Shown here: positions 6,770-62,146 of the stretch, in pieces
How positions within the stretch are numbered: the first letter of the stretch is position 1
How the letters are laid out: every line of letters starts with the position of its first letter
Source of the DNA: an uncultured Planctomycetia bacterium
GTDB lineage: Bacteria > Omnitrophota > Gorgyraeia > JABMRG01
Assembly: GCA_964634945.1 (NCBI GenBank)
Contig: CAZWMG010000006.1
Span: 736 to 64,735, forward strand
Direction: 5' to 3'
Length of the DNA stretch: 64,000 nt
Translations under genes and position numbers: made by a program
The notes under the pieces: model-generated
What the model was told of the DNA's origin: nothing
Database searches by the model: none
What the model saw: the letters and a program-made list of their open reading frames with translations, nothing else

Positions 6770-6794
6770 AAAATAGTTTCAGTATGTATACATT

Positions 6795-6808
6795 ATTGTA
6801 TATACAAT
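6795..6808 (-). promoter_or_regulatory. palindromic operator candidate upstream of brnT
   Basis: 14-nt perfect palindrome 'attgtatatacaat' about 26 nt upstream of the brnT start. Typical position for a TA autoregulation site. Confidence 0.35.
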
Positions 6809-6844
6809 ATATCAAGATTTCACATATATGTCAAGGGAAAAATC

Positions 6845-6979
6845 TGAAAGTACTCGAAGGGCCTGCCCTACTCAAAAAGAGCGCGTGAAGACATAAGCCG
6901 CTCAAAAGGTTTTGATGAAATCATAGGTGTCTTAGATAAGCTGAAAAGCGATTATGCTATTAAGTGGCTAAAAAGGTAA
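6845..6979 (+). repeat. near-identical duplicate of the dus 3' end (with an internal deletion)
   Basis: 6859..6979 matches 6112..6232 (the last ~120 nt of dus including the stop) with a few mismatches, for example 'gggcctgccctactcaaaaagagcgcgtgaagacataag...'. Confidence 0.85.
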
Positions 6980-9346: not shown

Positions 9347-12300
9347 TTAGCTGCTTATAGCGAAACCTAAGTTTACCTTATTACGATTAGCGCGCCTTGT
9401 TACGGGACTTGTGTTGGGATATCCTAGCTTGCGCGCTACATTCATATTTTTAATAGGGATGTTTTCTACTGCTAATCTTTCAACGGCGCCTTTAAGCTCA
9501 TGAATAAATACGCTTCTCCTCGAAAGCACTCCCAATAAACTGAAATCTATCTTATGATATTTAGAGCGCCTTGTTAGCTCCTTTGATTCCTTATAGCCGA
9601 GTTTGTACGCTACATTGCATATGGTTGGCAGCTTATCTTCTTCGATTAATTCTTTAACAGCGCCTGCAACCTTATGTATAAATTTATCTCTGCTGAAAAC
9701 CACTAATCCTAATAAACTTAAATCTATACTATAATAATTCGCGAGCTTTGTTATAGGACCTGCTGTATCATAGCCTAGTTTGCGTGCTACGTTTCGCGTA
9801 ATAGGCAGTTCACCTTTGTCTGTTAATTCCTTAACAGCGCCTTCAACCTTATAAATAAAAACATCTCTACTTGTAAACAATCCTAGCAAGTTTAAGTCTA
9901 TACCATGATACTTGGCTAGTCTTGTCAAGGACCCTGTTTTCTCATAGCCTAGTTTGCGTGCTATATTTCGCGTAATAGGCAACTCTCCTTCTTCTATCAA
10001 TTCTTTAACAACACCTTTAATCTTTTGTATAGTCTTATCTCTACTGCCGCTGGAAGAAGCCTTAACAGCCCCATTAAGGGCCTTTAAAACTTCAGGATGC
10101 GCGCTTAAATACTCTTTTACTCTTGCGTCATAATCAGCCTCTTTTGCTTTTTGCATAGTAAGTTCTTCCTGCCATTTAGGTTCAATGGTTTTACCAGGAA
10201 AAGCCTTCTCAAGCCATTGAATCTGGTGCTTTGCACACCATCCATGTGAAATGTTACTTGGTATCTTTATTTCTGTTACCTCGTACGCCTTGCCGCATGT
10301 AGCGCACATTGAAACCTTAATATTTTTCCCTTTGATATACTTCTCAACTATGGGCTCAACGATGTCTCTGCTGCCTATAAAACCATGCGTTAATAAGAGT
10401 ATTTGGAATAGATGGTCATTGTTCAGGATATCCTCATCCTCTTTTATATCTAAATTAAGGGTATCGATATCACCTGCCTCATCACCATGGTAAAATGCTA
10501 ACAATGCATCCGCTATCTTAAAGTAACGTTGAAGCTTAGTATCTGCCGCAATAATAGGGCTAATAGTAGGCACTTTGCCTAAATAGATATTGCCTGTATT
10601 GCCATCTATTGTTATGGTATCGCCATTTTCGATCCTACAGGGTTTGCCAGTATTATCTGTATACACAATACCGCTGTCATCACGTGCAAAATTAGCGCCA
10701 GCACGAAGAGTTACAGCCGGTTTTATAATATCTGCTGTTCCCATTTTTTCTCTGGCTAATTCCGCGATATGGTTAATCAATGAATCTTCCTTTGTAATAA
10801 AGCCCACGGGCCAGTACATGTCAATCTGGCTGTGAAAAAATGATGAGCCCATAGCCGCAATAGGGTTATCATACTTATCAAATAAAAATCTATCGGGGTT
10901 CTCACGCACAATTAACCTTCCTGTTACAACACCCGGAGAAAGCGGAAATCCCCTTAAAACAGGCTCTATGTCACAATTAGGGCTTACTACAGGCGATTTG
11001 AGTAAGGAGATAAAATGATCTATCCGTTCCGACTCCTTTAAAACGCTTCCGCTCTCTTCGTAATCAATACTAAGAATATCTCTTGTAGCTATATCTGAAT
11101 AGCTTATCTTATCAGCAACTTCACGATACGTCAGAGTACCATTGATTCCCATATCGATCGCGTAATGGACCAGGGCCACAGGATGTACAAGAGCAGATCT
11201 TTGTTGAAGAATATACAATTTACCGCCTTCAATAGTAAATTCAATATTTCTAATATCATTGTAAACTGTCTCTAATTTCCTAGCATTCTTTTTAATAGCG
11301 GCTAATTGTGCCGGGAACATCTTTTCAAAAGTCTCTTTATAAAATATTACCTGTCCGCTTGAAGGCGTTACAACCGCAGGCCCTTGTGACTTATGAGCCA
11401 TTTCAATGTATACGCTGTTCTCGCCTGTTATCGGGTGCCTTGAAGCGGCAATACCGGTGCATGAGTTGTTATTGAGATTACCAAAAACCATCGCCTGCAC
11501 AGTAAAAGCTATATATGTGCTATCTCCTAGCATTTTTTTACTGTGCAAAAGCCGAGCTTGTTTTGAAAGATCTCCCATATCACCTTCTTGATATTTTTTG
11601 AAAGCTTCTACCGCAAGCGCTAACTGCTGCCATGGGTCCTCAGGGAATTCTATATTGTGCTTGTCTAATAGATATTTTTTTAGCTTACTAATAGTTTCCT
11701 TGTATACCAACTTCTTAGGCACCCCGTCTTTACTTATCAGTTCAAAGCCTACAAAATGGTGCGCATTATCATATTTTCTAATAAAGTTATTTTTATATAT
11801 CTCTAATATGTCATAATCCAAAGTATTGATAATGTCAACACCCAACACAGCCTCACTATAAAAGCATAAATACATTAAATACATATTGTACAATTCAACC
11901 TTATCTTCGAACCGCTTCTCCAAGGCCTTGACTGTCTCGTCATTTAAACCTATATTGAGCAATGTGGACAATTTCCCGGGCTCAACAAATGGATATCCTG
12001 CCCTGATTGAAAGAAATAGCGGTTTTTTAGCATCCCCGAAATAGCGCTCTTTTCCTGATAAAGCTTTCATCCGCTTTTCTATCTCACCTACCGCACGGCG
12101 CAATGATGCACGATCATTTGATAGAGTTCTAATCTCATCTGATGTAATTTCAGAATCGATAACAAATCCCGGAGGAACAGGCATATTCTCCAAGGCTAGT
12201 CGCATTAGGCCTGAGCCCTTATCACTCAATAGGATTTTATTCTCAGGATTGCCGTCCGCATAGCCGGGCCAAAAAAAGTGCAGGTGAGCAATGTCAGGCG

Positions 12301-18552: not shown

Positions 18553-18559
18553 GGTAGAG

Positions 18560-18758
18560 GCAAAGGATAAATCCTAAACTCTAATATCTAAATCTTAAAC
18601 AAATTCAAAATTTTAATTTTCAAATGTTCAAAACTTTTGTTTTGAACATTTGATTTTTGATAATTTGATATTGTTTAGAGATTAGAACTTAAGATTTAGA
18701 ATTTAAGGATTATGCTTGCTAAGCAATTCTTACCACTTAATTCTTACAACTAAACGCG
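18560..18758. repeat. MITE-like palindromic intergenic repeat, copy A
   Basis: 'aaatcctaaactctaatatctaaatcttaaac...caaatgttcaaaacttttgttttgaacatttg...tttagagattagaacttaagatttag' has terminal and central inverted symmetry. Related copies occur at ~49.2, 51.4, 53.6 and 57.7 kb. Confidence 0.75.
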
Positions 18759-22535: not shown

Positions 22536-23900
22536 TTATTGCTCCTTTGTTTGTATTGTAAGAAGGAAGACATCGTCGTCCTGTACCCCTGCCTGAAAAT
22601 CATTAAGTTTTTTCATAAGGGCCTGATTAAATGTTTCTACATCCAAAATATTATGTTCCTGTACAAAATCCTCTAATCGCTTACTGCCAAACTCCTGTTT
22701 CGAGGAATCTCTTGCCTCTATTATTCCGTCAGTAAAGAGTATGAGCCTATCACCCGGGGCAAACGCTATATCATTGTTGTGTATACTGCTGGCGTCCATA
22801 CCTATGCCCATTAAAAAAGTCTGGGGCTGCATCAACACGATAGAATTTTCCTTTGACTGCAATAGTATCTGTGGCGGGTGGCCGTAGTTTGAATATATCA
22901 GCTTGTTGTTTGAAAAATCCAAAAGGCCGCAAAAAGCTGTTAAGAAAAACCCCATCTTTCCAAAGTCTTTATTTATAAATTCATCCAGCTCTTTAAGGAT
23001 GGCACCGGGGGACAAGTCCTCTCCTCTTACAAGCCGTTCTATTTCAGCGTGAACCCTGTTTACCAAAAGCGCTGAACATACGCCATGGCCGGTAACATCC
23101 GCAACTATGAATAATAATTTATCATTATTTATAAAATGGAACTTCGCGTAATCTCCACCCATATAGAACATAGGCTTATACATAACAGCTATGTCAGCAA
23201 GCTTATGGTTGACTGAATGTGGTATTATACTCTTATGTATCTTTTTAGCGAGCTCCAGCTCTTTTGCCATTAAAGCATTCTTCTCATCTATCTCTTTTCC
23301 CGCCGCGAATATCTTTCTTCTGGATATATCCTCACTCGCCTCAGCGACAACAGCGACAAAAACAGCGACAAAGAGCAAGATAGCGTTTATGCTTAATATC
23401 TCAGTGCTTACGAATACATTAGAGGAGATATAGACCGCAAGAAAACTAACTAGCGTAAAGATGCCTATAATAACCGCCTCTATAAAGCCCCATGGTAGAA
23501 GCAATATAGTCATAAATAGCGCTATAAGCACAAGCCCAATGCCCATGAAAGACATTATCTCAGGGTGCGCCGTAACAGCTAATATCGCGATCGCGATCAG
23601 AAGAAAACTAAATATCAATGCCCTTGCCTTCTGATACCATAGTTCTTTTGTTATATTACCCGTTATAAGCGATATTATAGCAAACGCTATTCCGCCGATA
23701 ATACCGGGCATGTCTTTAGCGCTTAATAAATGCTTAAAAAAGATAGATCCAAGCAGGACCTCAATCGAAAATATGGCGATCGTTACATAACAGAATAGGT
23801 TTATCCTTAAATGAAAAAGCTTCGCAAGTTCTTGTTTATACTCTTTCTTGAACCTGTCAGGTATTATCGCTTTTATCATGATATCATCCTTTGGTTTCAA
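22536..23900 (-). CDS. membrane-anchored PP2C-type Ser phosphatase (SpoIIE/RsbU-like)
   Basis: N-terminal multi-TM region followed by '[40 protein letters not shown]...' and '[11 protein letters not shown]', the PP2C/SpoIIE motifs. Confidence 0.7.
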
Positions 23901-24648
23901 TTAATACTTTTATAGATGTCGGGCTGCTCTCCGGGCCCTTATACTTTAACCAAGCGAAATCGCCTTGTGCCAAATGCCAGGTATATGCCTTTGGCAGGAA
24001 AACCTTAAATATGCTTAAAAGCCCAAGATTAGGATCAAGGCATATCTTATAAGCGGGCAATTTCTTATTATGAATATCTATGACCTCCTCATTAATCACC
24101 TTAATATCTACCACTAGTAGACTCGGTTCAGCGGTCAATAGGTCCACCCTCTTTTCTCTGATACCATTATTTAGCAATTTCTGCAGGTAAAGAGAAAGTG
24201 CCAGCCTATTTATCGGGTCAGAGGAAAAATTAAACTCTCTCGATGTTTCACGGTCTTTAACCTTGTCCTTCTTTGTACATAATATTTTTTTATCAATATA
24301 ATCGAATTCCTGCGTCTCTATAGCAAGTAATTCCTTCGCCTTATTAAAAACTCGCTTTTCTACCCTGATCGGGCTTATAGTATCTTTAGTGCTCTTAAAC
24401 CGCAATACAGATGCCCATGATACCTCATCTTCAAAACCGCTATAATAACCCATACCGTCTTCTGTTAATATGAATATGTCGTCAGGGTCACCTTTAAGGT
24501 GTTTAATAACAGCTTTCGCGCTCCACCTTGGATTGCCCTCCAAATCTGTGCAAAAATAACTTGTGTTGAAATTCGTATCAATATCAGAAAAACACGCAGG
24601 CGCTGATAATAATACGATACAAGCAATCAGTGTAATTATTTTCAACAT
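23884..24648 (-). CDS. secreted hypothetical protein
   Basis: Signal peptide 'MLKIITLIACIVLLSAPACFSD'. No recognisable domain. Confidence 0.4.
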   Translation of the reverse strand: MLKIITLIACIVLLSAPACFSDIDTNFNTSYFCTDLEGNPRWSAKAVIKHLKGDPDDIFILTEDGMGYYSGFEDEVSWASVLRFKSTKDTISPIRVEKRVFNKAKELLAIETQEFDYIDKKILCTKKDKVKDRETSREFNFSSDPINRLALSLYLQKLLNNGIREKRVDLLTAEPSLLVVDIKVINEEVIDIHNKKLPAYKICLDPNLGLLSIFKVFLPKAYTWHLAQGDFAWLKYKGPESSPTSIKVLIETKG

Positions 24649-24856
24649 AAGGCCTCCTGTTAACTCTCATACAATGCCTGGTACTTATAAATAAAAAATC
24701 CTTCGACTGGTCAACCATACCACCAAAAGAAGGACGAGCATTCTTATTTGTGTATAAGTGTGAGTATATTATACTATTTGTACTAATATGTCAAGGCGAT
24801 ATTTGCAATTAAACGCTCTGTTCATTTCGTCGTGCGTTGTGTGCTGTGTGTTACTT

Positions 24857-24904
24857 CAAGACCGGTTCTCAAGCACAACCGGTTGTGCTTGAGAACCGGT
24901 CTTG
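24857..24904. promoter_or_regulatory. perfect 48-bp palindrome in a divergent promoter region
   Basis: 'caagaccggttctcaagcacaacc|ggttgtgcttgagaaccggtcttg' sits between the divergent gene starts at 24648 (-) and 24945 (+). Confidence 0.5.
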
Positions 24905-24944
24905 AATATAGTATAATGCATGAAGAAAAGATTGGAGGTTTGAT

Positions 24945-35591: not shown

Positions 35592-36092
35592 TGTTACCTA
35601 TTTTATCACTTTTTTTAATAGCCGCAAGCAAAATCCGCAATAACAACTATACACCAGTGCAAAACTAGTCACTGCCGCCAACTTTAAACTTGGGGGTAGT
35701 TTTCACAGAAACGCTCGCAAACCCCTGCGAGGTTTGCTCACTCCGTTTTGTTGCTCATTCATACAATTAAAACAACGTGGAAAAACCATGCCATTCGTAA
35801 CAAAAAGGTTCTGTTCCAAACCACCCCCAAGCCTAAAGTTTACGCAAGGTGTTTACTGCATGCTATTCTCATCATATATATCCGAAAGGTTTCGTTGCAA
35901 TCAGAGCAGGACCTTGTTGATGCGAGCGGGCAAGGTTTCCGCCGAAGGCGGAAGAGCGAACATCAACGCGGAGTACAATTTTACACGCCGGGGAAAATTG
36001 TACGCTCCTGCGGAGATTGGCTACGAAACCTTTTGGCTATCATAAACGAGTTTTTGTTGTGAGATCAAATGCCTAATGTTATACTATAAAAC

Positions 36093-38492: not shown

Positions 38493-38777
38493 TTAGCGTC
38501 TCTTCCTTTTTATTTTGTGCATAGGCTCCGGCAATGGTAGCCTCATAACAGATAGAAGCTTCTTTTCAAGTTCTAATTTGGAATGCACGCCATTGCCATT
38601 AAAATCGTTTACCTTTATAACATCTATAAGCGCTCTTATCACATCTGTTCTTGAGAGCTTGTGCCCAGTTGAAAATAAAGCGTCCTTTGAGAGCCTATCT
38701 ATAAAATCAATCTCATCTCTGGTTAAGAGCGCGACTACCCTGCCGGTATTACCCTGACTTGATAAGTTATTCTTCAT
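38493..38777 (-). CDS. hypothetical protein
   Basis: 94-aa ORF directly upstream of, and co-oriented with, 38206..38490. Confidence 0.3.
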   Translation of the reverse strand: MKNNLSSQGNTGRVVALLTRDEIDFIDRLSKDALFSTGHKLSRTDVIRALIDVIKVNDFNGNGVHSKLELEKKLLSVMRLPLPEPMHKIKRKRR

Positions 38778-39211
38778 ATTTATCTATCCTCCTTAGTTAG
38801 CAGCCTAAGATCTATAAGGCATAAAAAAAGCCCTAAAACATTTAAAAGGTATCTACCTCTTGAAAGTTTTAGGGCTTGAAAAATCAATATCTGATATTTC
38901 GGCAACCCGACTACCGTACCCTTTGACAATTCTGGGTTTAGGCTCGCGGCTTTGCGCCCCGCTCTTTCAAGCGGTTTGCCTTTATCGTTACTTTTTTAAA
39001 AGAACCTTTGTTTCTTCTCATAACAAATATGCCCTACCCTTTACCAAAAGTCAAGGGGTTAGAAGTATATTTTTACATTTCTACACTTTTACACTTTGTC
39101 CATCTCATTAAAATGATCCGTAGCAATCTTCACAGGAACGTACAATTTTACCCAACGTATAAAATTGTACTACACCTGTTCTCAATATTGTTCACACCTT
39201 CTGCCTTCACT

Positions 39212-39279
39212 GCGCAGGTATTTTTGCCATCCACTTATAACAGTAGGCAAAAAAATCCAATGCGCCGCTACAGGCAAAG
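39212..39279. repeat. conserved imperfect hairpin module (copy 1 of 2)
   Basis: 'gcgcaggtatttttgccat[variable ~16 nt]ggcaaaaaaatccaatgcgc..caggcaaag'. The same stem with a different loop recurs at 61860..61927. Confidence 0.6.
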
Positions 39280-39694
39280 GTGCCGACAATATTCTTATTT
39301 AGACATGCATATGATCCTAAAAACCATAAAAAGCAAGGAAATAACGTGCTTAGGGGGTACTGTTCTCACGATTTCACTATTAGCTTGTGTAGTGGTCTTG
39401 AGCAAAACCTTTTTTCTTAAATGTTGCAGTGTATGCTAGCAACATTTAAGGAACCTTCTGGTACAAAGCGACTACTAGCGGTTTGTTACGAATAGCATGC
39501 CTGCCGGCCGGCAGGGTTTTTCCGTATTGTTTAACTATATGGATGAGCAACAAAGCGGAATAAGCAAACATCGCTGGAGTTTGCGAACGTTTTTGTGAAG
39601 ACCACTACGCAAGCATGGGGGGCACGGATTACAACAAAATTTTCTTTGGTTATATATGATTATAAATCAGGTAAGAGGTGAAAAGATGTTGGGA

Positions 39695-40429
39695 TTAAGG
39701 ATTTGTATGTGCCGCGCGCTTCTCTATATACTCTATGACCCCCTCTTGCGTAGCGGGGGAAAGGCCTGTAAAGGCAACGCCCATTCCGGGATAGAGTTCA
39801 GGCTGAAGCATTTTATCAGCGAGCCACATTACAACGCCTTGGAATTCCTTTGGGTCCTGATCTTTTTCAAGCATGATCTCAAGGCGGACATCACTACCCG
39901 GAGGCAGGAGCTGGATGGAACGTATAAAAAGACCTGCGCCGCTTAAATTGCCCATTCTGCCTGAACAGATATGGCCTCCTTTATCAGAACGTGAATATTG
40001 AGCCAGCCTATAAACTATGGGCAAGTCTATATCAAGCCTTAAAAAACGTCGACGCCACTGCTGTTTAAGATCATCTTTCCCCAAAGAATCCACTTTGTTC
40101 GTAAAACTATCGATAGCCTTATCTATGTCAGGGTATATCTCAAAAACATCATCGAGTTTTACTACCCTGAAAATCTCTTCAACATCAAGTATTATGCCGC
40201 ATAATTTCATTATACACTTATTATTTAACGCGTTCTTATAGGTTATAGCCAGTACAGAAAGTCCGTTATAATCTACATGACTAATACCCTTCATATCTAT
40301 GATTATCTTTGAGCTGCCCTTCTCAAGCAAATCACCTACTATCTCTATAAGCTTGGATGAGTTAATATTTATCATGCCCTCTATGTTCAGGACATCGATG
40401 TCATGGAGGCGCTTTACCTTTATCTTCAT
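39695..40429 (-). CDS. STAS-PilZ fusion protein
   Basis: N-terminal STAS-like segment ('IDVLNIEGMIN...KIIIDMKGISHVDYNGLSVLAI...'). C-terminal PilZ motifs 'RRRFLRLD' (RxxxR) and 'GNLSGAGLFI' (D/NxSxGG). Confidence 0.55.
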   Translation of the reverse strand: MKIKVKRLHDIDVLNIEGMININSSKLIEIVGDLLEKGSSKIIIDMKGISHVDYNGLSVLAITYKNALNNKCIMKLCGIILDVEEIFRVVKLDDVFEIYPDIDKAIDSFTNKVDSLGKDDLKQQWRRRFLRLDIDLPIVYRLAQYSRSDKGGHICSGRMGNLSGAGLFIRSIQLLPPGSDVRLEIMLEKDQDPKEFQGVVMWLADKMLQPELYPGMGVAFTGLSPATQEGVIEYIEKRAAHTNP

Positions 40430-40529: not shown

Positions 40530-40904
40530 TTATTCAAACGCCTCTTGGGTTCCTTTTATCGGTGTATTAATACTACCTTCTACCGCAGTATAACCTGTAT
40601 CTACACTTCCCTTGACAGGAACAACAACTACGTCCTTTATCTTCTCAGGCTTACCGGTAACAGTCTCAACCGCGCTAACTCCTGTATTAGTAACTGTTGT
40701 AAGGCCCTGTTCTGTTGTGCGTCCCACTGTTCCTACAGCCTCCTTTGTAATGCTAAAAGGCCACTTCACAAGATCCTTTAAAAACTTTACCGCCTTGTTC
40801 TCCTGCTGCACCTGTTCCTGCTGGGCAAGCGCCCCGCTTACGCAACAGATAGATGCCGCTACAACTAAAATTACAACACAGCATATGCTACCATATCTCT
40901 TCAT
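40530..40904 (-). CDS. small secreted hypothetical protein
   Basis: Signal peptide 'ICCVVILVVAASICCVSGALAQ' and a Thr/Val-rich body. Confidence 0.35.
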   Translation of the reverse strand: MKRYGSICCVVILVVAASICCVSGALAQQEQVQQENKAVKFLKDLVKWPFSITKEAVGTVGRTTEQGLTTVTNTGVSAVETVTGKPEKIKDVVVVPVKGSVDTGYTAVEGSINTPIKGTQEAFE

Positions 40905-41505: not shown

Positions 41506-41859
41506 CTATTTTTCCTCAAATACGAACTCAGGTTGCAATATAGGGCTGTAGTCCTGTGGCATTGGAAAGAGGAATGTTACTGTATCATACGCGCCGGCGC
41601 CTGTTCTTACTACCGCCATGCCAAGGCCCTTTAATGTGCCGTATGTTATACCCATTAAAGGGTTATTGGTATCTACGCTGGTATCATATATATTCATAGG
41701 TAACTCTACCCAACCGGTTACTATATTGACAATACCTCTGCCTAGTTTCTTGCCCATCTTCTCTACAACGCTACCTTCTTCGGCAAATACCGGTAAAGCT
41801 ATCGCCGCAACGCATAACACTACCAAACATGTTATTAATGACCTTGTACCTCTTCTCAT
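41506..41859 (-). CDS. TIGR04073-like (exosortase-system-associated-like) small secreted protein
   Basis: 'KLGRGIVNIVTGWVELPMNIYDTS...GITYGTLKGLGMAVVRTGAGAYDTVTFLFPMP' follows a signal peptide. Confidence 0.5.
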   Translation of the reverse strand: MRRGTRSLITCLVVLCVAAIALPVFAEEGSVVEKMGKKLGRGIVNIVTGWVELPMNIYDTSVDTNNPLMGITYGTLKGLGMAVVRTGAGAYDTVTFLFPMPQDYSPILQPEFVFEEK

Positions 41860-49165: not shown

Positions 49166-49395
49166 AGTATTAAGTTGTAAGCATTAAGCAACAAGCCTAA
49201 TCCTTAAATTCTAAATCCTAAGTTCTAAACTCTAAACAATATTAAATTACCAAAATCCAAATGTTCAAAAAAAAGTTTTGAATTCTAGAAATTAGAATTT
49301 TGAATTTGTTTAGGATTTAGATATTAGAGTTTAGGATTTATTATTTACCTCTTTTCCTTTTCCTTCACCTTTACCTAGTATCTTGTATCTAGCAT
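49166..49395. repeat. MITE-like palindromic repeat, copy B
   Basis: 'gtaagcattaagcaacaagcctaatccttaaattctaaatcctaagttctaaactctaaac...tttgaatttgtttaggatttagatattagagtttaggattt...cacctttacctag'. It is the inverted counterpart of copy C. Confidence 0.8.
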
Positions 49396-49888: not shown

Positions 49889-50171
49889 AACTTAGACCTG
49901 CCTGCCGGCAGGCAGGGAACAAGGTGAACTAAGTTGTTTGACCGAATTAACCCCGTACCCAAGCCTGGCGTCTAAATGCACACTTCGCAGGCGAGTGGTG
50001 TCGAGGTAACGACTACCCACAACTTAGAAAACAAAGTTGTATGAGCAAATTAACCTATGAATCCTATAAAAGTCTAACTTCTAATATATTATTAAATTAT
50101 CACAATGTCAATAAAATTGGCATTTTAACAATTATTTTTATTCTCTTCTACCCACAAGCGCTTAAAAATTG

Positions 50172-51324: not shown

Positions 51325-51565
51325 GATAAAGAAAAAAAGTATAAAGTAAAAAGGATAAAGGAAAAGAGGTAAATAATAAATCCTAAACTCTAATATCTAA
51401 ATCCTAAACAAATTCAAAATTCTAATTTCTAGAATTCAAAACTTTTTTTTGAACATTTGGATTTTGGTAATTTAATATTGTTTAGAGTTTAGAACTTAGG
51501 ATTTAGAATTTAAGGATTAGGCTTGTTGCTTAATGCTTACAACTTAATACTAAATTCGAATATAT
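51325..51565. repeat. MITE-like palindromic repeat, copy C (inverted relative to B)
   Basis: 'aaaggataaag...aaatcctaaactctaatatctaaatcctaaac...caaaactttttttt gaacatttg...ttagagtttagaacttaggatttagaatttaaggattaggcttgttgcttaatgcttacaactt' is the reverse complement of copy B. Confidence 0.8.
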
Positions 51566-53539: not shown

Positions 53540-53760
53540 AGTCGTAAGTTGTAAGTATTAAGTACTAAACCCAATCTTTAAATTCTAAATCCTAAGTTCT
53601 AAACTCTAAACAATATCAAATTACCAAAATCTAAATGTCCAAAACGAAAGTTTTGAATTTTGAAAATTAGAATTTTGAATTTGTTTAGGATTTAGATATT
53701 AGAGTTTAGGATTTATTATTTACCTCTTTTTCTTCACCTTCACCTTTACCTAGTTCATAG
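53540..53760. repeat. MITE-like palindromic repeat, copy D
   Basis: 'gtaagttgtaagtattaagtactaaac...taaattctaaatcctaagttctaaactctaaac...tttgaatttgtttaggatttagatattagagtttaggattt...cacctttacctag', in the same orientation as copy B. Confidence 0.8.
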
Positions 53761-57631: not shown

Positions 57632-57649
57632 AAGCTACTCTCCGCGTTA

Positions 57650-57775
57650 AACTCGAAATCCTAAACTCTAAACAATGTCAAATGAACAAAATCCGAATAT
57701 CTAAATTTTTTGAATTTAGAAAATTAGAATTTTGAATTTGTTTAGGATTTAGATATTAGAGATTAGGATTTAACT
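57650..57775. repeat. MITE-like palindromic repeat, copy E
   Basis: 'aaatcctaaactctaaacaatgtcaaatgaacaaaatccgaatatctaaattttttgaatttagaaaattagaattttgaatttgtttaggatttagatattagagattaggattt'. Confidence 0.75.
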
Positions 57776-58596
57776 TTATCCTTTACCTTTTCGTGACTCA
57801 GCCTCTTCCGCGCTTCTTCAAAAAACGTCTCCGCGAAACTGCTATCCCAAACCCTCTGGTTGAAATCCCTTTTCTCAACCAGATCAAGAAAGCCCTTAAA
57901 ATCTTCATAATAGCTTCCATATATATGAAAACTGTCGGTAATATCCGTATGCCTTCCAACATCAATCTTCTTGCCTGTCTTTTCTGATATACGTTGCGCA
58001 ATCTCTCTCTGTAAATCTGTAAGCGCGAATATATTCATGAATGCCGCTTTGAACGCATCTCTGGAGCGCCAGTGCGTATTCATATTAAGAAGCAATCTAT
58101 TCTCCTGAGATGATATCCTAAACCATACCCTTTGCAGGCATGGCGGGTCATCTGTCGGTATGTCAAGTTTGGGATTCCATGTTATGGCCTGCGCTCTCCT
58201 TGAGTAACTACTTTCGCTAAGCTTGTTAACAATGTAATCCATCTGGTCGATTATATCTGTTTCACTTTTGTAGGAAAAGAGCCTCTGGTGGTATGTATAT
58301 GTCCATTTTCCTTCTTCAGGGGCTATCCAATGATCGTGAACCCCATCGACAACCTCCTGCCTGTAAACCTCGAGGTCATCAAGGCCGCCTGGAAACGCCC
58401 TATGTATGCGCGGCTCTTTAAACGGGGAGTTTATAACGATTATCATTGTAGCGTCTCTGCTTGGCGGATCATCGGGCTTATCATACTCTGTCCTTACCTG
58501 CGTGCCTTCTTTCCATGTCCTGATAACCGCTTCTTCCCATGCTTCAGGTAGGGTATCTCGCTGAACCTGGATTACCGGTATCCCCTCTGTCTTCAT
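57763..58596 (-). CDS. thymidylate synthase (ThyA) family protein, divergent
   Basis: 'AQAITWNPKLDIPTDDPPCLQRVWFRIS' parallels ThyA 'IISAWNP...LPPCHAFFQFYV'. 'HWRSRDAFKAAFMNIFA' corresponds to 'YQRSCD..LGLPFNIAS'. 'DSFHIYGSY' corresponds to 'GDTHLYSNH'. Confidence 0.55.
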   Translation of the reverse strand: MKTEGIPVIQVQRDTLPEAWEEAVIRTWKEGTQVRTEYDKPDDPPSRDATMIIVINSPFKEPRIHRAFPGGLDDLEVYRQEVVDGVHDHWIAPEEGKWTYTYHQRLFSYKSETDIIDQMDYIVNKLSESSYSRRAQAITWNPKLDIPTDDPPCLQRVWFRISSQENRLLLNMNTHWRSRDAFKAAFMNIFALTDLQREIAQRISEKTGKKIDVGRHTDITDSFHIYGSYYEDFKGFLDLVEKRDFNQRVWDSSFAETFFEEARKRLSHEKVKDKVKS

Positions 58597-61678: not shown

Positions 61679-61753
61679 TGGAGCGGGAGACGGGGTTCGA
61701 ACCCGCGACGTCAAGCTTGGGAAGCTTGCATTCTACCACTGAATTACCCCCGC
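61679..61753 (-). tRNA. tRNA-Gly (anticodon CCC), CCA-encoded
   Basis: Reverse complement is GCGGGGGTAATTCAGTGGTAGAATGCAAGCTTCCCAAGCTTGACGTCGCGGGTTCGAACCCCGTCTCCCGCTCCA. It folds as a cloverleaf with a 7-bp acceptor stem, a GGTTCGAA T-loop, and an anticodon loop 'TTCCCAA' carrying the CCC anticodon. Confidence 0.8.
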
Positions 61754-61859
61754 ACAAATCTCATCACGCGCAACGCCTTGGCATTTTTCACAAATAATTA
61801 TCTATTTCTTTGCAATCAAAGCAGGCAACTTGCATCTGCTCATATCTCTTGCCTCCACA

Positions 61860-61927
61860 GCGCAGGTATTTTTGCCATATATTTAAAATCCATGGCAAAA
61901 AAATCCAATGCGCTGTTAAAGGCAAAG
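61860..61927. repeat. conserved imperfect hairpin module (copy 2 of 2)
   Basis: 'gcgcaggtatttttgccat atatttaaaatccat ggcaaaaaaatccaatgcgc tgttaaaggcaaag'. The stems are identical to 39212..39279 and the loop differs. Confidence 0.6.
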
Positions 61928-62146
61928 ATATAAGCAGATAATAAAATAGTTTAGTTGCAATTGAGTCAAAATCTAAATAGTTGCTTGCGGCTTTGCCGGA
62001 GTAGTGCTTTGGCTTTTTTGCCGTAATTTAAAACTAACGGCAAAATACCAGCAATACGAAGGTAAGAGCCGCGAGCAACTATCCCTATATGCATAATCAA
62101 GATTTGTATTTGTTTTAATTGCAAGGAACCATATTATTGCGAAAGA

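Follow-up and report, generated by a model that had tools for sequence, protein, structure and literature searches.

BOX of Streptococcus pneumoniae and the BIMEs of enterobacteria are mosaic intergenic repeats. Repeats of this type, which have been reviewed (PMC3184786), consist of short non-coding modules whose order, number and orientation vary from one intergenic spacer to another, with stable predicted folds, no encoded transposase and a distribution restricted to particular lineages. REPINs are inverted REP doublets that owe their mobility to RAYT transposases (PMC3337134). MITEs such as Correia, RUP and Nezha (reviewed in PMC10969869) and the ERIC/RU-1 elements (PMC2759123) are small (100–250 nt), multi-copy, intergenic and non-coding, have inverted ends, and can differ between related genomes in whether a given site is occupied. 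In an uncultured bacterium of the phylum Omnitrophota, we have found intergenic repeat modules, here called A, B, C and D, for which BOX, BIME/REPIN and ERIC, likewise modular and structure-forming, are the closest analogues.

The window, i.e. the whole 64,000-nt stretch of DNA that was analysed, contains a 917-nt spacer (38778–39694) flanked by two minus-strand genes, a 94-aa ORF (38493–38777) and a STAS+PilZ gene (39695–40429) with a product of 244 aa. A first-pass annotation had singled out this spacer as an unusually long gene-free region with several hairpins, and it is indeed the longest non-coding gap of the window, the runners-up between convincing ORFs being 666 nt and 392 nt. Two plus-strand ORFs inside the spacer (83 aa and 143 aa) gave no match in a Pfam search and are composed of repeat modules that are found elsewhere in both orientations, in agreement with the earlier judgement that nothing in the region is truly coding. 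All six inverted repeats that had been listed were recovered, at 38828–38877, 39140–39170, 39212–39265, 39413–39453, 39500–39515 (followed by a T-run) and 39564–39584, and are numbered here as hairpins 1 to 6. Fold z-scores against dinucleotide shuffles were −4.6 for 38770–39030 (minus strand), −6.2 for 39370–39630 (plus strand) and −7.6 for 39383–39616 (plus strand), with zero shuffles folding as well as the native sequence in each of the three cases. The spacer is composed of a riboswitch cassette and repeat modules, an assignment in which we have high confidence, and it is probable that these are two unrelated layers, one a known type of regulator and the other a nest of repeats belonging to an undescribed family. 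The first layer (38778–39097, minus strand) has the following features:

38792–38788 and 38777–38775, minus strand: ribosome-binding site (GGAGG) and start codon (ATG) of the first regulated gene, the 94-aa ORF, read from the sequence; the site is kept in relatives
38821–38880, minus strand: intrinsic terminator and riboswitch expression platform (hairpin 1), from inverted repeat I1 and its fold
38898–38990, minus strand: c-di-GMP-I (GEMM-I) riboswitch aptamer, from the Rfam RF01051 covariance model
39026–39054, minus strand: sigma-70-type promoter of the riboswitch operon (TTGACT, 17 nt, CATATT), from a promoter scan
39055–39097, no strand assigned: region upstream of the promoter with direct repeats of TTTTACAC, from alignments with L001/L009 and more distant relatives

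The sequence at 38898–38990 is a c-di-GMP-I riboswitch with predicted ligand binding, a further instance of a known family. It matches RF01051 over the entire model (positions 1–87 of 87) at 80.8 bits, exceeding the gathering score of 35 more than twofold (E 2.5e-14), and has no structural difference from the family; what it adds is the host phylum and the regulated operon. The placement is that of a cis-regulatory element, with the aptamer in the 5′ leader between promoter and terminator, followed by the ribosome-binding site and the ATG. RF01051 matches of 65.6–82.7 bits lie at the same position in nine relatives (L002, L009, L016, L019, L020, L055–L058), and an orthologous aptamer is present down to 56% STAS-PilZ protein identity. 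The terminator, a stem of approximately 24 bp (arms 38877–38854 and 38851–38828) with a U7 tract behind it on the minus strand, is shared by nine species, and changes to its arms in the more distant ones preserve pairing. The promoter hexamers are kept in seven of the eight aligned relatives (L058 being the exception, and the −35 of L055 lying outside the aligned stretch). The cassette as a whole is 93–95% identical in sister species and 83–86% identical in more distant species, and 39055–39097 still falls within the part that is conserved at the riboswitch locus.

Approximately 20 nt separate the aptamer from the terminator. Because the two do not overlap, the architecture points to a likely off switch, in which bound c-di-GMP would keep the aptamer folded, the terminator would form and the operon would be turned off. 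The aptamer is also complementary to the terminator's 5′ arm at 11 of 12 positions (I4), a match that, by eye, is lost in distant relatives. The aptamer carries a G at the position equivalent to G20 in the Vc2 structure, suggesting c-di-GMP and not cGAMP as the ligand. The operon encodes two 94-aa proteins without a known family (one of them the product of 38493–38777), a 47-aa protein and a TIGR04073 exosortase-associated protein, and it ends with an ECF sigma factor; two further PilZ proteins are found in the neighbourhood. This arrangement is seen again in nine relatives within Omnitrophota. As a regulator this is a routine instance, which ties c-di-GMP to an operon with an ECF sigma factor and an exosortase-associated protein in an uncultured phylum.

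The second layer concerns the remaining length of the spacer, which has 917 nt here, 765 nt in sister species (L009–L015) and 339–514 nt in more distant species (L016–L021). In the last group the riboswitch part alone aligns, and the approximately 540 bases at 39098–39641 are absent. These bases are probably an insertion that has lengthened the spacer, a mosaic of non-autonomous interspersed repeats built from A, B, D and C modules. Self-comparison of the window showed that pieces of the insertion recur at 35690–36040 (opposite strand) and at 61837–61927. The modules of the insertion, the adjoining flank and the further copies in the window are given below, with helix names (P1 to P3) and covariance model R1 as described for the consensus fold:

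39110–39176, minus strand: truncated A-type unit, 3′ half only, with hairpin 2 as its P3; 82.5% identical to 36034–35972
39184–39297, plus strand: B module, an imperfect long hairpin of approximately 115 nt with hairpin 3 as its core (nhmmer, 107 bits)
39298–39382, plus strand: D spacer module, which travels with B and C; aligned with a B-D-C block at a different locus (L024)
39383–39616, plus strand: C-type unit, from its fold z-score and an R1 score of 51.6 bits on the part 3′ of its first insertion
39617–39694, no strand assigned: flank 3′ of the STAS-PilZ gene, with 39627–39679 kept at the locus in sister species
35685–35835, minus strand: second C-type unit of the window, compact and canonical (R1, 162.3 bits)
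35886–36032, plus strand: full-length A-type unit in the spacer between a radical-SAM gene and a 228-aa gene (R1, 64.8 bits, and alignment)
61829–61937, plus strand: further copy of the B module (nhmmer, 104.7 bits)
61979–62081, minus strand: weaker B-like copy (nhmmer, 42.0 bits)

Identity over the conserved piece of the flank (39627–39679) is 98% to L001 and 92% to L009–L015. The A-type remnant at 39110–39176 reaches 11.5 bits with R1 when filters are off, and a full A-type unit is found at the same spacer site in sister species L009 and L040. In the C-type unit at 39383–39616, P1 is formed by 39383–39399 with 39598–39614 and P3 is hairpin 6. Alignments with the second window copy and with L024 show that two hairpins are private to this C-type unit: 39417–39483, which holds hairpin 4, and hairpin 5, a GC palindrome found in this C copy only, beside the U5 loop of hairpin P2a. 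The second C-type unit (35685–35835) folds at −66.4 kcal/mol compared with −49.7 kcal/mol for its antisense strand, and forms a head-to-head pair with the A-type unit at 35886–36032. A piece of D of approximately 40 nt occurs elsewhere in L009. For module B, nhmmer searches gave approximately 17 distinct copies across the window and the other loci, with a conserved asymmetric core and outer arms that covary. The sequence of B gives it a clear orientation, but fold energy favours neither strand; in 11 of 13 cases B lies 10–125 nt upstream of an A/C unit in the same orientation. A role of B as an intrinsic terminator (a hairpin and then AUUCUUAUUU) was considered and rejected, as its placement relative to genes is inconsistent. 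As a separate observation, the B copies at 61829–61937 and 61979–62081 adjoin a tRNA gene (61682–61753).

These assignments bear on what else the first-pass annotation had proposed. Its description of the hairpins as conserved holds at the locus for the left 320 nt, across species, but for the right 540 nt conservation is limited to copies scattered over other loci. Of its two leads, one or more novel structured ncRNAs or a decayed mobile-element end, the former fails for the left part, which the suggested Rfam search assigns to a known riboswitch family; the other five hairpins belong to no Rfam family and do have covarying structure, but are without signs of independent RNA genes. At permissive thresholds, Rfam searches with 39098–39641, with both C-type copies of the window and with canonical A, B and C modules returned only generic hairpin and miRNA-like hits of 8–29 bits, far below gathering scores. 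The mobile-element lead came closer, because the remaining five hairpins are pieces of multi-copy structured repeat modules, albeit of no known IS. The T-run that had been pointed out after 39500–39515 is not a terminator tail; it is the conserved U5 loop of hairpin P2a in the C-type unit.

A-type and C-type modules are two subfamilies of a single Y-shaped element of approximately 150 nt, which constitutes a new repeat family. We consider them one element because covariance model R1, which was built from 14 compact C-type copies and scores C-type units at 120–168 bits, also detects A-type units, at 46–92 bits on the opposite strand; alignment shows that the P1b, P2 and P3-loop sequences are common to both. 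The consensus fold has 44–45 pairs. An extended stem, P1, closes the element and is followed by P1b; P2 bears hairpin P2a as well as an internal loop that is large and conserved, and P3 is a further hairpin. In all, we found 27 A/C units, of which 17 were C-type and 10 A-type in a comparison of strand folds. The usual arrangement is a head-to-head A|C pair with a spacer of 8–60 nt, seen at seven loci. Copies within the window have diverged, with the two C-type units (c1 and c2) being 81% identical in the core.

Analysis of covariation, which had been suggested as a check, gave a strong signal in the A/C unit. In the 14 compact C-type copies, 93.8% of cells pair compared with 41–49% in slid controls, and 21 pairs change on both sides compared with 4–7 in slid controls. 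None of 500 shuffles reached the native values for pairing or for double changes, a control that is inflated by the kinship of the copies (effective sequence number 1.35). With both subfamilies combined (29 distinct copies), 93.6% of cells pair compared with 40–46% in slid controls, and changes on both sides are seen in 32 of 45 pairs. The arms of P1 differ between copies yet stay complementary, with changes on both sides at 10 of 10 P1 pairs. The units also show a clear strand preference: in 16 of 17 C-type units and in 10 of 10 A-type units the more stable fold is that of the sense strand, with a mean gain of 10–12 kcal/mol, and G-U pairs outnumber A-C mismatches by 101 to 33. A-type units were left out of model building, and their strand bias is independent of the model.

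Copies of A, B and C are present in other spacers of L016 and L020, and a scan of metagenomes with a pattern for the C core returned 21 loci, of which one was a chance match, leaving 20 further loci. The pattern forced 22 core bases to be identical, and the conservation of that segment in the retrieved copies is therefore a search artefact. The neighbours of the units are ordinary genes, encoding for example AcrB, ABC transporters, a GGDEF protein and radical-SAM enzymes, and orientation with respect to the neighbouring gene is co-directional in approximately 13 cases and opposite in 12. In the spacers that were examined closely, units are placed upstream of each divergent gene's promoter, as read from the sequence. 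Truncated, nested and interrupted copies occur. Modules turn over between species: orthologous spacers differ in the modules they hold or in module orientation in the three that were compared (STAS-PilZ/riboswitch, radical-SAM/228-aa and DJ-1/254-aa). In the sister species, for example, the spacer orthologous to ours has a full A module, B in the opposite orientation and no C. Likewise, in L024 the DJ-1/254-aa spacer holds a block that matches the B-D-C block of the window at approximately 90% identity over approximately 440 nt, while the window's own DJ-1 spacer has no such block and carries in its place a perfect palindrome of 52 nt. An inversion between B copies that moved B-D-C from the DJ-1 spacer was considered and rejected, as gene order is collinear with L016.

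The family appears to be confined to a narrow group. A search with R1 over 126 kb from slightly more distant relatives found no unit, phage and plasmid collections gave no match to the repeat modules, and scans of viral contigs gave no true copy, 12 matches to a 17-mer of B being due to chance. Our literature search found no description of such repeats in Omnitrophota. Between species, units are 83–88% identical where the flanking proteins are 67–84% identical, and conservation above that of the flanking proteins is as compatible with selection for a host function as with recent spread.

One possible explanation, which we put forward with moderate confidence from the sequence comparisons, is that the A/C, B and D modules are selfish, non-autonomous, structure-constrained repeats. 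Comparison of species suggests that they are mobile. They would move or be copied between intergenic spacers, often as blocks (B-D-C, or head-to-head A|C pairs), and would probably be of no use to the genes beside them. The likely reason why the fold persists is that the sense strand is propagated or tolerated in single-stranded form, which could be ssDNA or RNA. Within the layered reading of the spacer, which is probable overall, we regard this way of spreading and this single-stranded form as about an even call. Searches for the hallmarks of mobile elements in the 27 units gave no target-site duplication or direct repeats (boundaries are fuzzy, and short duplications could be missed), no conserved flanking motif, including a conserved tetranucleotide such as a GTAG-like 5′ motif, and no sequence-conserved terminal inverted repeat. 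No transposase, integrase or reverse transcriptase was found near any copy when 20 neighbouring ORFs were scanned. Hammerhead, group II domain V, T-loop and attC features were compared by eye with no convincing match.

In terms of described systems, the A/C, B and D modules resemble BOX and BIMEs in their varying combination in intergenic spacers, their stable predicted folds, the lack of an encoded transposase and their lineage restriction. They differ in having no sequence similarity to either and in their core, which is a three-arm fold of approximately 150 nt with covariation and strand bias, and not a short palindrome. The likeness to REPINs lies in the head-to-head inverted pairs of related units, in the compensatory changes that keep pairing, and in a strand specificity that would agree with an ssDNA intermediate; mosaic clusters that include other motifs, such as B upstream of the unit, are likewise reminiscent of REP/BIME. 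In contrast to REPINs, the units here are five times longer than REP and fold alone, and the partners of a pair are diverged subfamilies (A and C). The units lack the 20–40 nt GC-rich palindrome with a conserved 5′ tetranucleotide that is typical of REP, and no RAYT gene was seen in the window or the loci examined. As in MITEs and ERIC, the elements are small, multi-copy, intergenic and non-coding with inverted ends, and related genomes differ in whether a site is occupied (here in three spacers of sister species). Unlike in MITEs and ERIC, the terminal stems covary and are not conserved in sequence, no target-site duplication or parent IS was found, and copies within one genome are diverged, not near-identical as after a recent burst. 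Should the units prove to be transcribed or to move as ssDNA, they would offer a tractable case of selfish elements under structural constraint.

The same structural evidence can be taken to indicate a function. It is possible, though in our view doubtful, that the A/C unit is an undescribed class of structured nucleic acid, specific to one strand and functional in its own right, either a functional RNA (for example a ribozyme, an RNA that binds protein or a small RNA that is processed) or a new kind of non-autonomous element that transposes as folded ssDNA without terminal repeats or target duplications. An unlikely alternative is that A/C units, with or without B as a 5′ domain, are multi-copy, independently transcribed small RNA genes that act in trans or sequester a protein, with the C-type unit at 39383–39616 (plus strand) being one such gene. 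This explanation stays live because strong covariation, consistent strand bias in folding and conservation across species in excess of that of the flanking proteins are all expected of functional RNA, as is the roughly 3:1 excess of G-U over A-C. The loop sequences conserved between both subfamilies and the position of B upstream of the unit in the same orientation would also fit, and independent genes would show random orientation with respect to their neighbours, as is seen. However, signals for transcription are lacking in the units. A sigma-70-like site lies upstream in the sense direction in only 4 of 27 units, no more often than pointing the other way (6 of 27), while the genuine promoters of this organism are canonical, and no U-tract terminator follows P1 in the units. 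A candidate promoter in the A|C spacer of the second window copy (TTGCAA, 18 nt, TATGAT) was rejected, as it is absent from other copies. Further evidence against small RNA genes is that truncation, nesting or interruption affects many copies, that sister species may have a unit, lack it or carry it inverted in one and the same spacer, and that the family is missing from the 126 kb of slightly more distant relatives. A role of the units as 5′ leaders, similar to a riboswitch, was considered because in divergent spacers they point toward the adjacent gene. It was rejected as well, since a divergent spacer produces this orientation automatically, orientation is random in tandem and convergent settings, and the units are positioned upstream of promoters.

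It is improbable that the repeats act as double-stranded DNA, with the palindromes (B and P1) serving as cruciform supercoil buffers or as sites for nucleoid proteins, as has been proposed for BIMEs. Such a role would be in line with modules lying between divergent promoters or just upstream of a promoter in the examined spacers, with B folding about equally well on both strands, and with the tolerance of either orientation. However, a structure formed by two strands predicts equal numbers of G-T and A-C mismatches, at odds with the counts given above, the sense strand folds better in 26 of 27 units, and units are also found downstream of genes in convergent or tandem settings.

Far less credible is the idea that the whole 917 nt is one locus-specific regulatory leader or 3′ UTR, either of the riboswitch operon or of the STAS-PilZ mRNA. 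The region does lie between two co-directional genes that are both connected to c-di-GMP signalling, through PilZ domains and the riboswitch, but the comparison of species contradicts a single leader or 3′ UTR: relatives have the same operon without the extra sequence, and the promoter conserved in seven of eight aligned relatives is downstream of the extra 540 nt. The C-type unit is, moreover, antisense to both flanking genes, and the modules recur at unrelated loci. That the region encodes a small protein can practically be dismissed, since the 143-aa ORF at 39008–39439 (plus strand), although called as 136 aa by gene callers in the identical contigs L002–L006, has no Pfam match, is absent from sister species, and is pieced together from the promoter region, the truncated A-type unit, B, D and a portion of C, the modules being found elsewhere in either orientation and differently ordered.

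The more useful product of this locus is the repeat family, a motif of approximately 150 nt with approximately 27 examples that is absent from Rfam and could join both RNA and repeat libraries. The repeats also account for spurious ORF calls in these spacers and for assembly gaps in metagenome-assembled genomes of Omnitrophota. In the case of L001, the only locus that a scan with the STAS-PilZ protein found in the genome collection, a run of 100 N is placed exactly at the repeats. In a 99.8%-identical JGI contig this run stands for 335 nt that hold a B module and an A-type unit, and the run in L001 is therefore an assembly gap at the repeats.

The c-di-GMP-related gene cluster is conserved across the clade and comprises the riboswitch operon, a minus-strand operon led by a c-di-GMP-I riboswitch, together with the genes of the PilZ-rich neighbourhood (40530-40904 and 41506-41859), which also includes small secreted proteins of unknown family and a second paralogue of the exosortase-associated TIGR04073 family (41506-41859). 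Immediately upstream of the -35 element of the riboswitch promoter, direct repeats of TTTTACAC are found at 39064-39097, and these are kept at equivalent positions in most aligned relatives; they could represent an UP element or an operator. In two loci of relatives, L055 (about 10815-10920) and L058 (about 10835-10940), aptamer-like extra sequence (GGCAAACCCCG...) is present upstream of the annotated c-di-GMP-I aptamer, and may be a tandem or partial second aptamer.

A further region of interest (24649-24790, minus strand) was found upstream of the gene encoding a 254-aa protein (23884-24648). It carries a canonical promoter (TTGACA, 17 nt, TATAAT) followed on its 3′ side by a stretch of ~100 nt that is nearly invariant across five species, has no match in Rfam and includes a hairpin (GUCCUUC...GAAGGA) with a run of six U. 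The stretch may act as an attenuator leader, or it may encode a small RNA of ~75 nt; the genes downstream encode a phosphatase of the SpoIIE type and a GTPase resembling EF-G.

Further repeats and palindromes in the window are as follows.

18556-18743 (+), AT-rich repeat of ~190 nt
24855-24906, perfect palindrome of 52 nt in the divergent spacer between the DJ-1 and 254-aa genes
49167-49352 (-), AT-rich repeat
49897-49916, GC-rich palindrome of 20 nt, CCTGCCTGCCGGCAGGCAGG
51365-51550 (+), AT-rich repeat
53542-53727 (-), AT-rich repeat
57637-57783 (-), AT-rich repeat
61829-61937 (+), B-type hairpin repeat
61979-62081 (-), B-type hairpin repeat, in opposite orientation to the preceding copy

The AT-rich repeats form a separate, internally palindromic family (five copies in 64 kb, 81-97% identity) that has no relationship with the A, B and C modules; none of the retrieved loci yielded a copy. 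The two B-type repeats occupy most of a 666-nt gap adjoining a tRNA gene (61682-61753). In sister species (loci L035, L024 and L016), precisely the site of the 52-nt palindrome is occupied by B-C repeat blocks. The palindrome is possibly a footprint, or else another kind of small element. The 20-nt palindrome is near-identical to the 16-nt palindrome (39500-39515) inserted in the C-type unit. It is possibly a very small element of the REP kind within an AT-rich genome.

Some C-type units also carry insertions, with an extra module starting ACCGTTAA... placed at the identical point of the P3 hairpin loop in three units.

L028 5642-5859
L041 22-239
L025 13244-13404

This shared insertion point suggests site-specific insertion into the C-type repeat itself. 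The B and A-type repeats also break assemblies. The public MAG contig L001 has exactly 100 N at 6786-6885, where a JGI contig of 99.8% identity (L040, 3562-3896) has 335 nt comprising B and an A-type unit.
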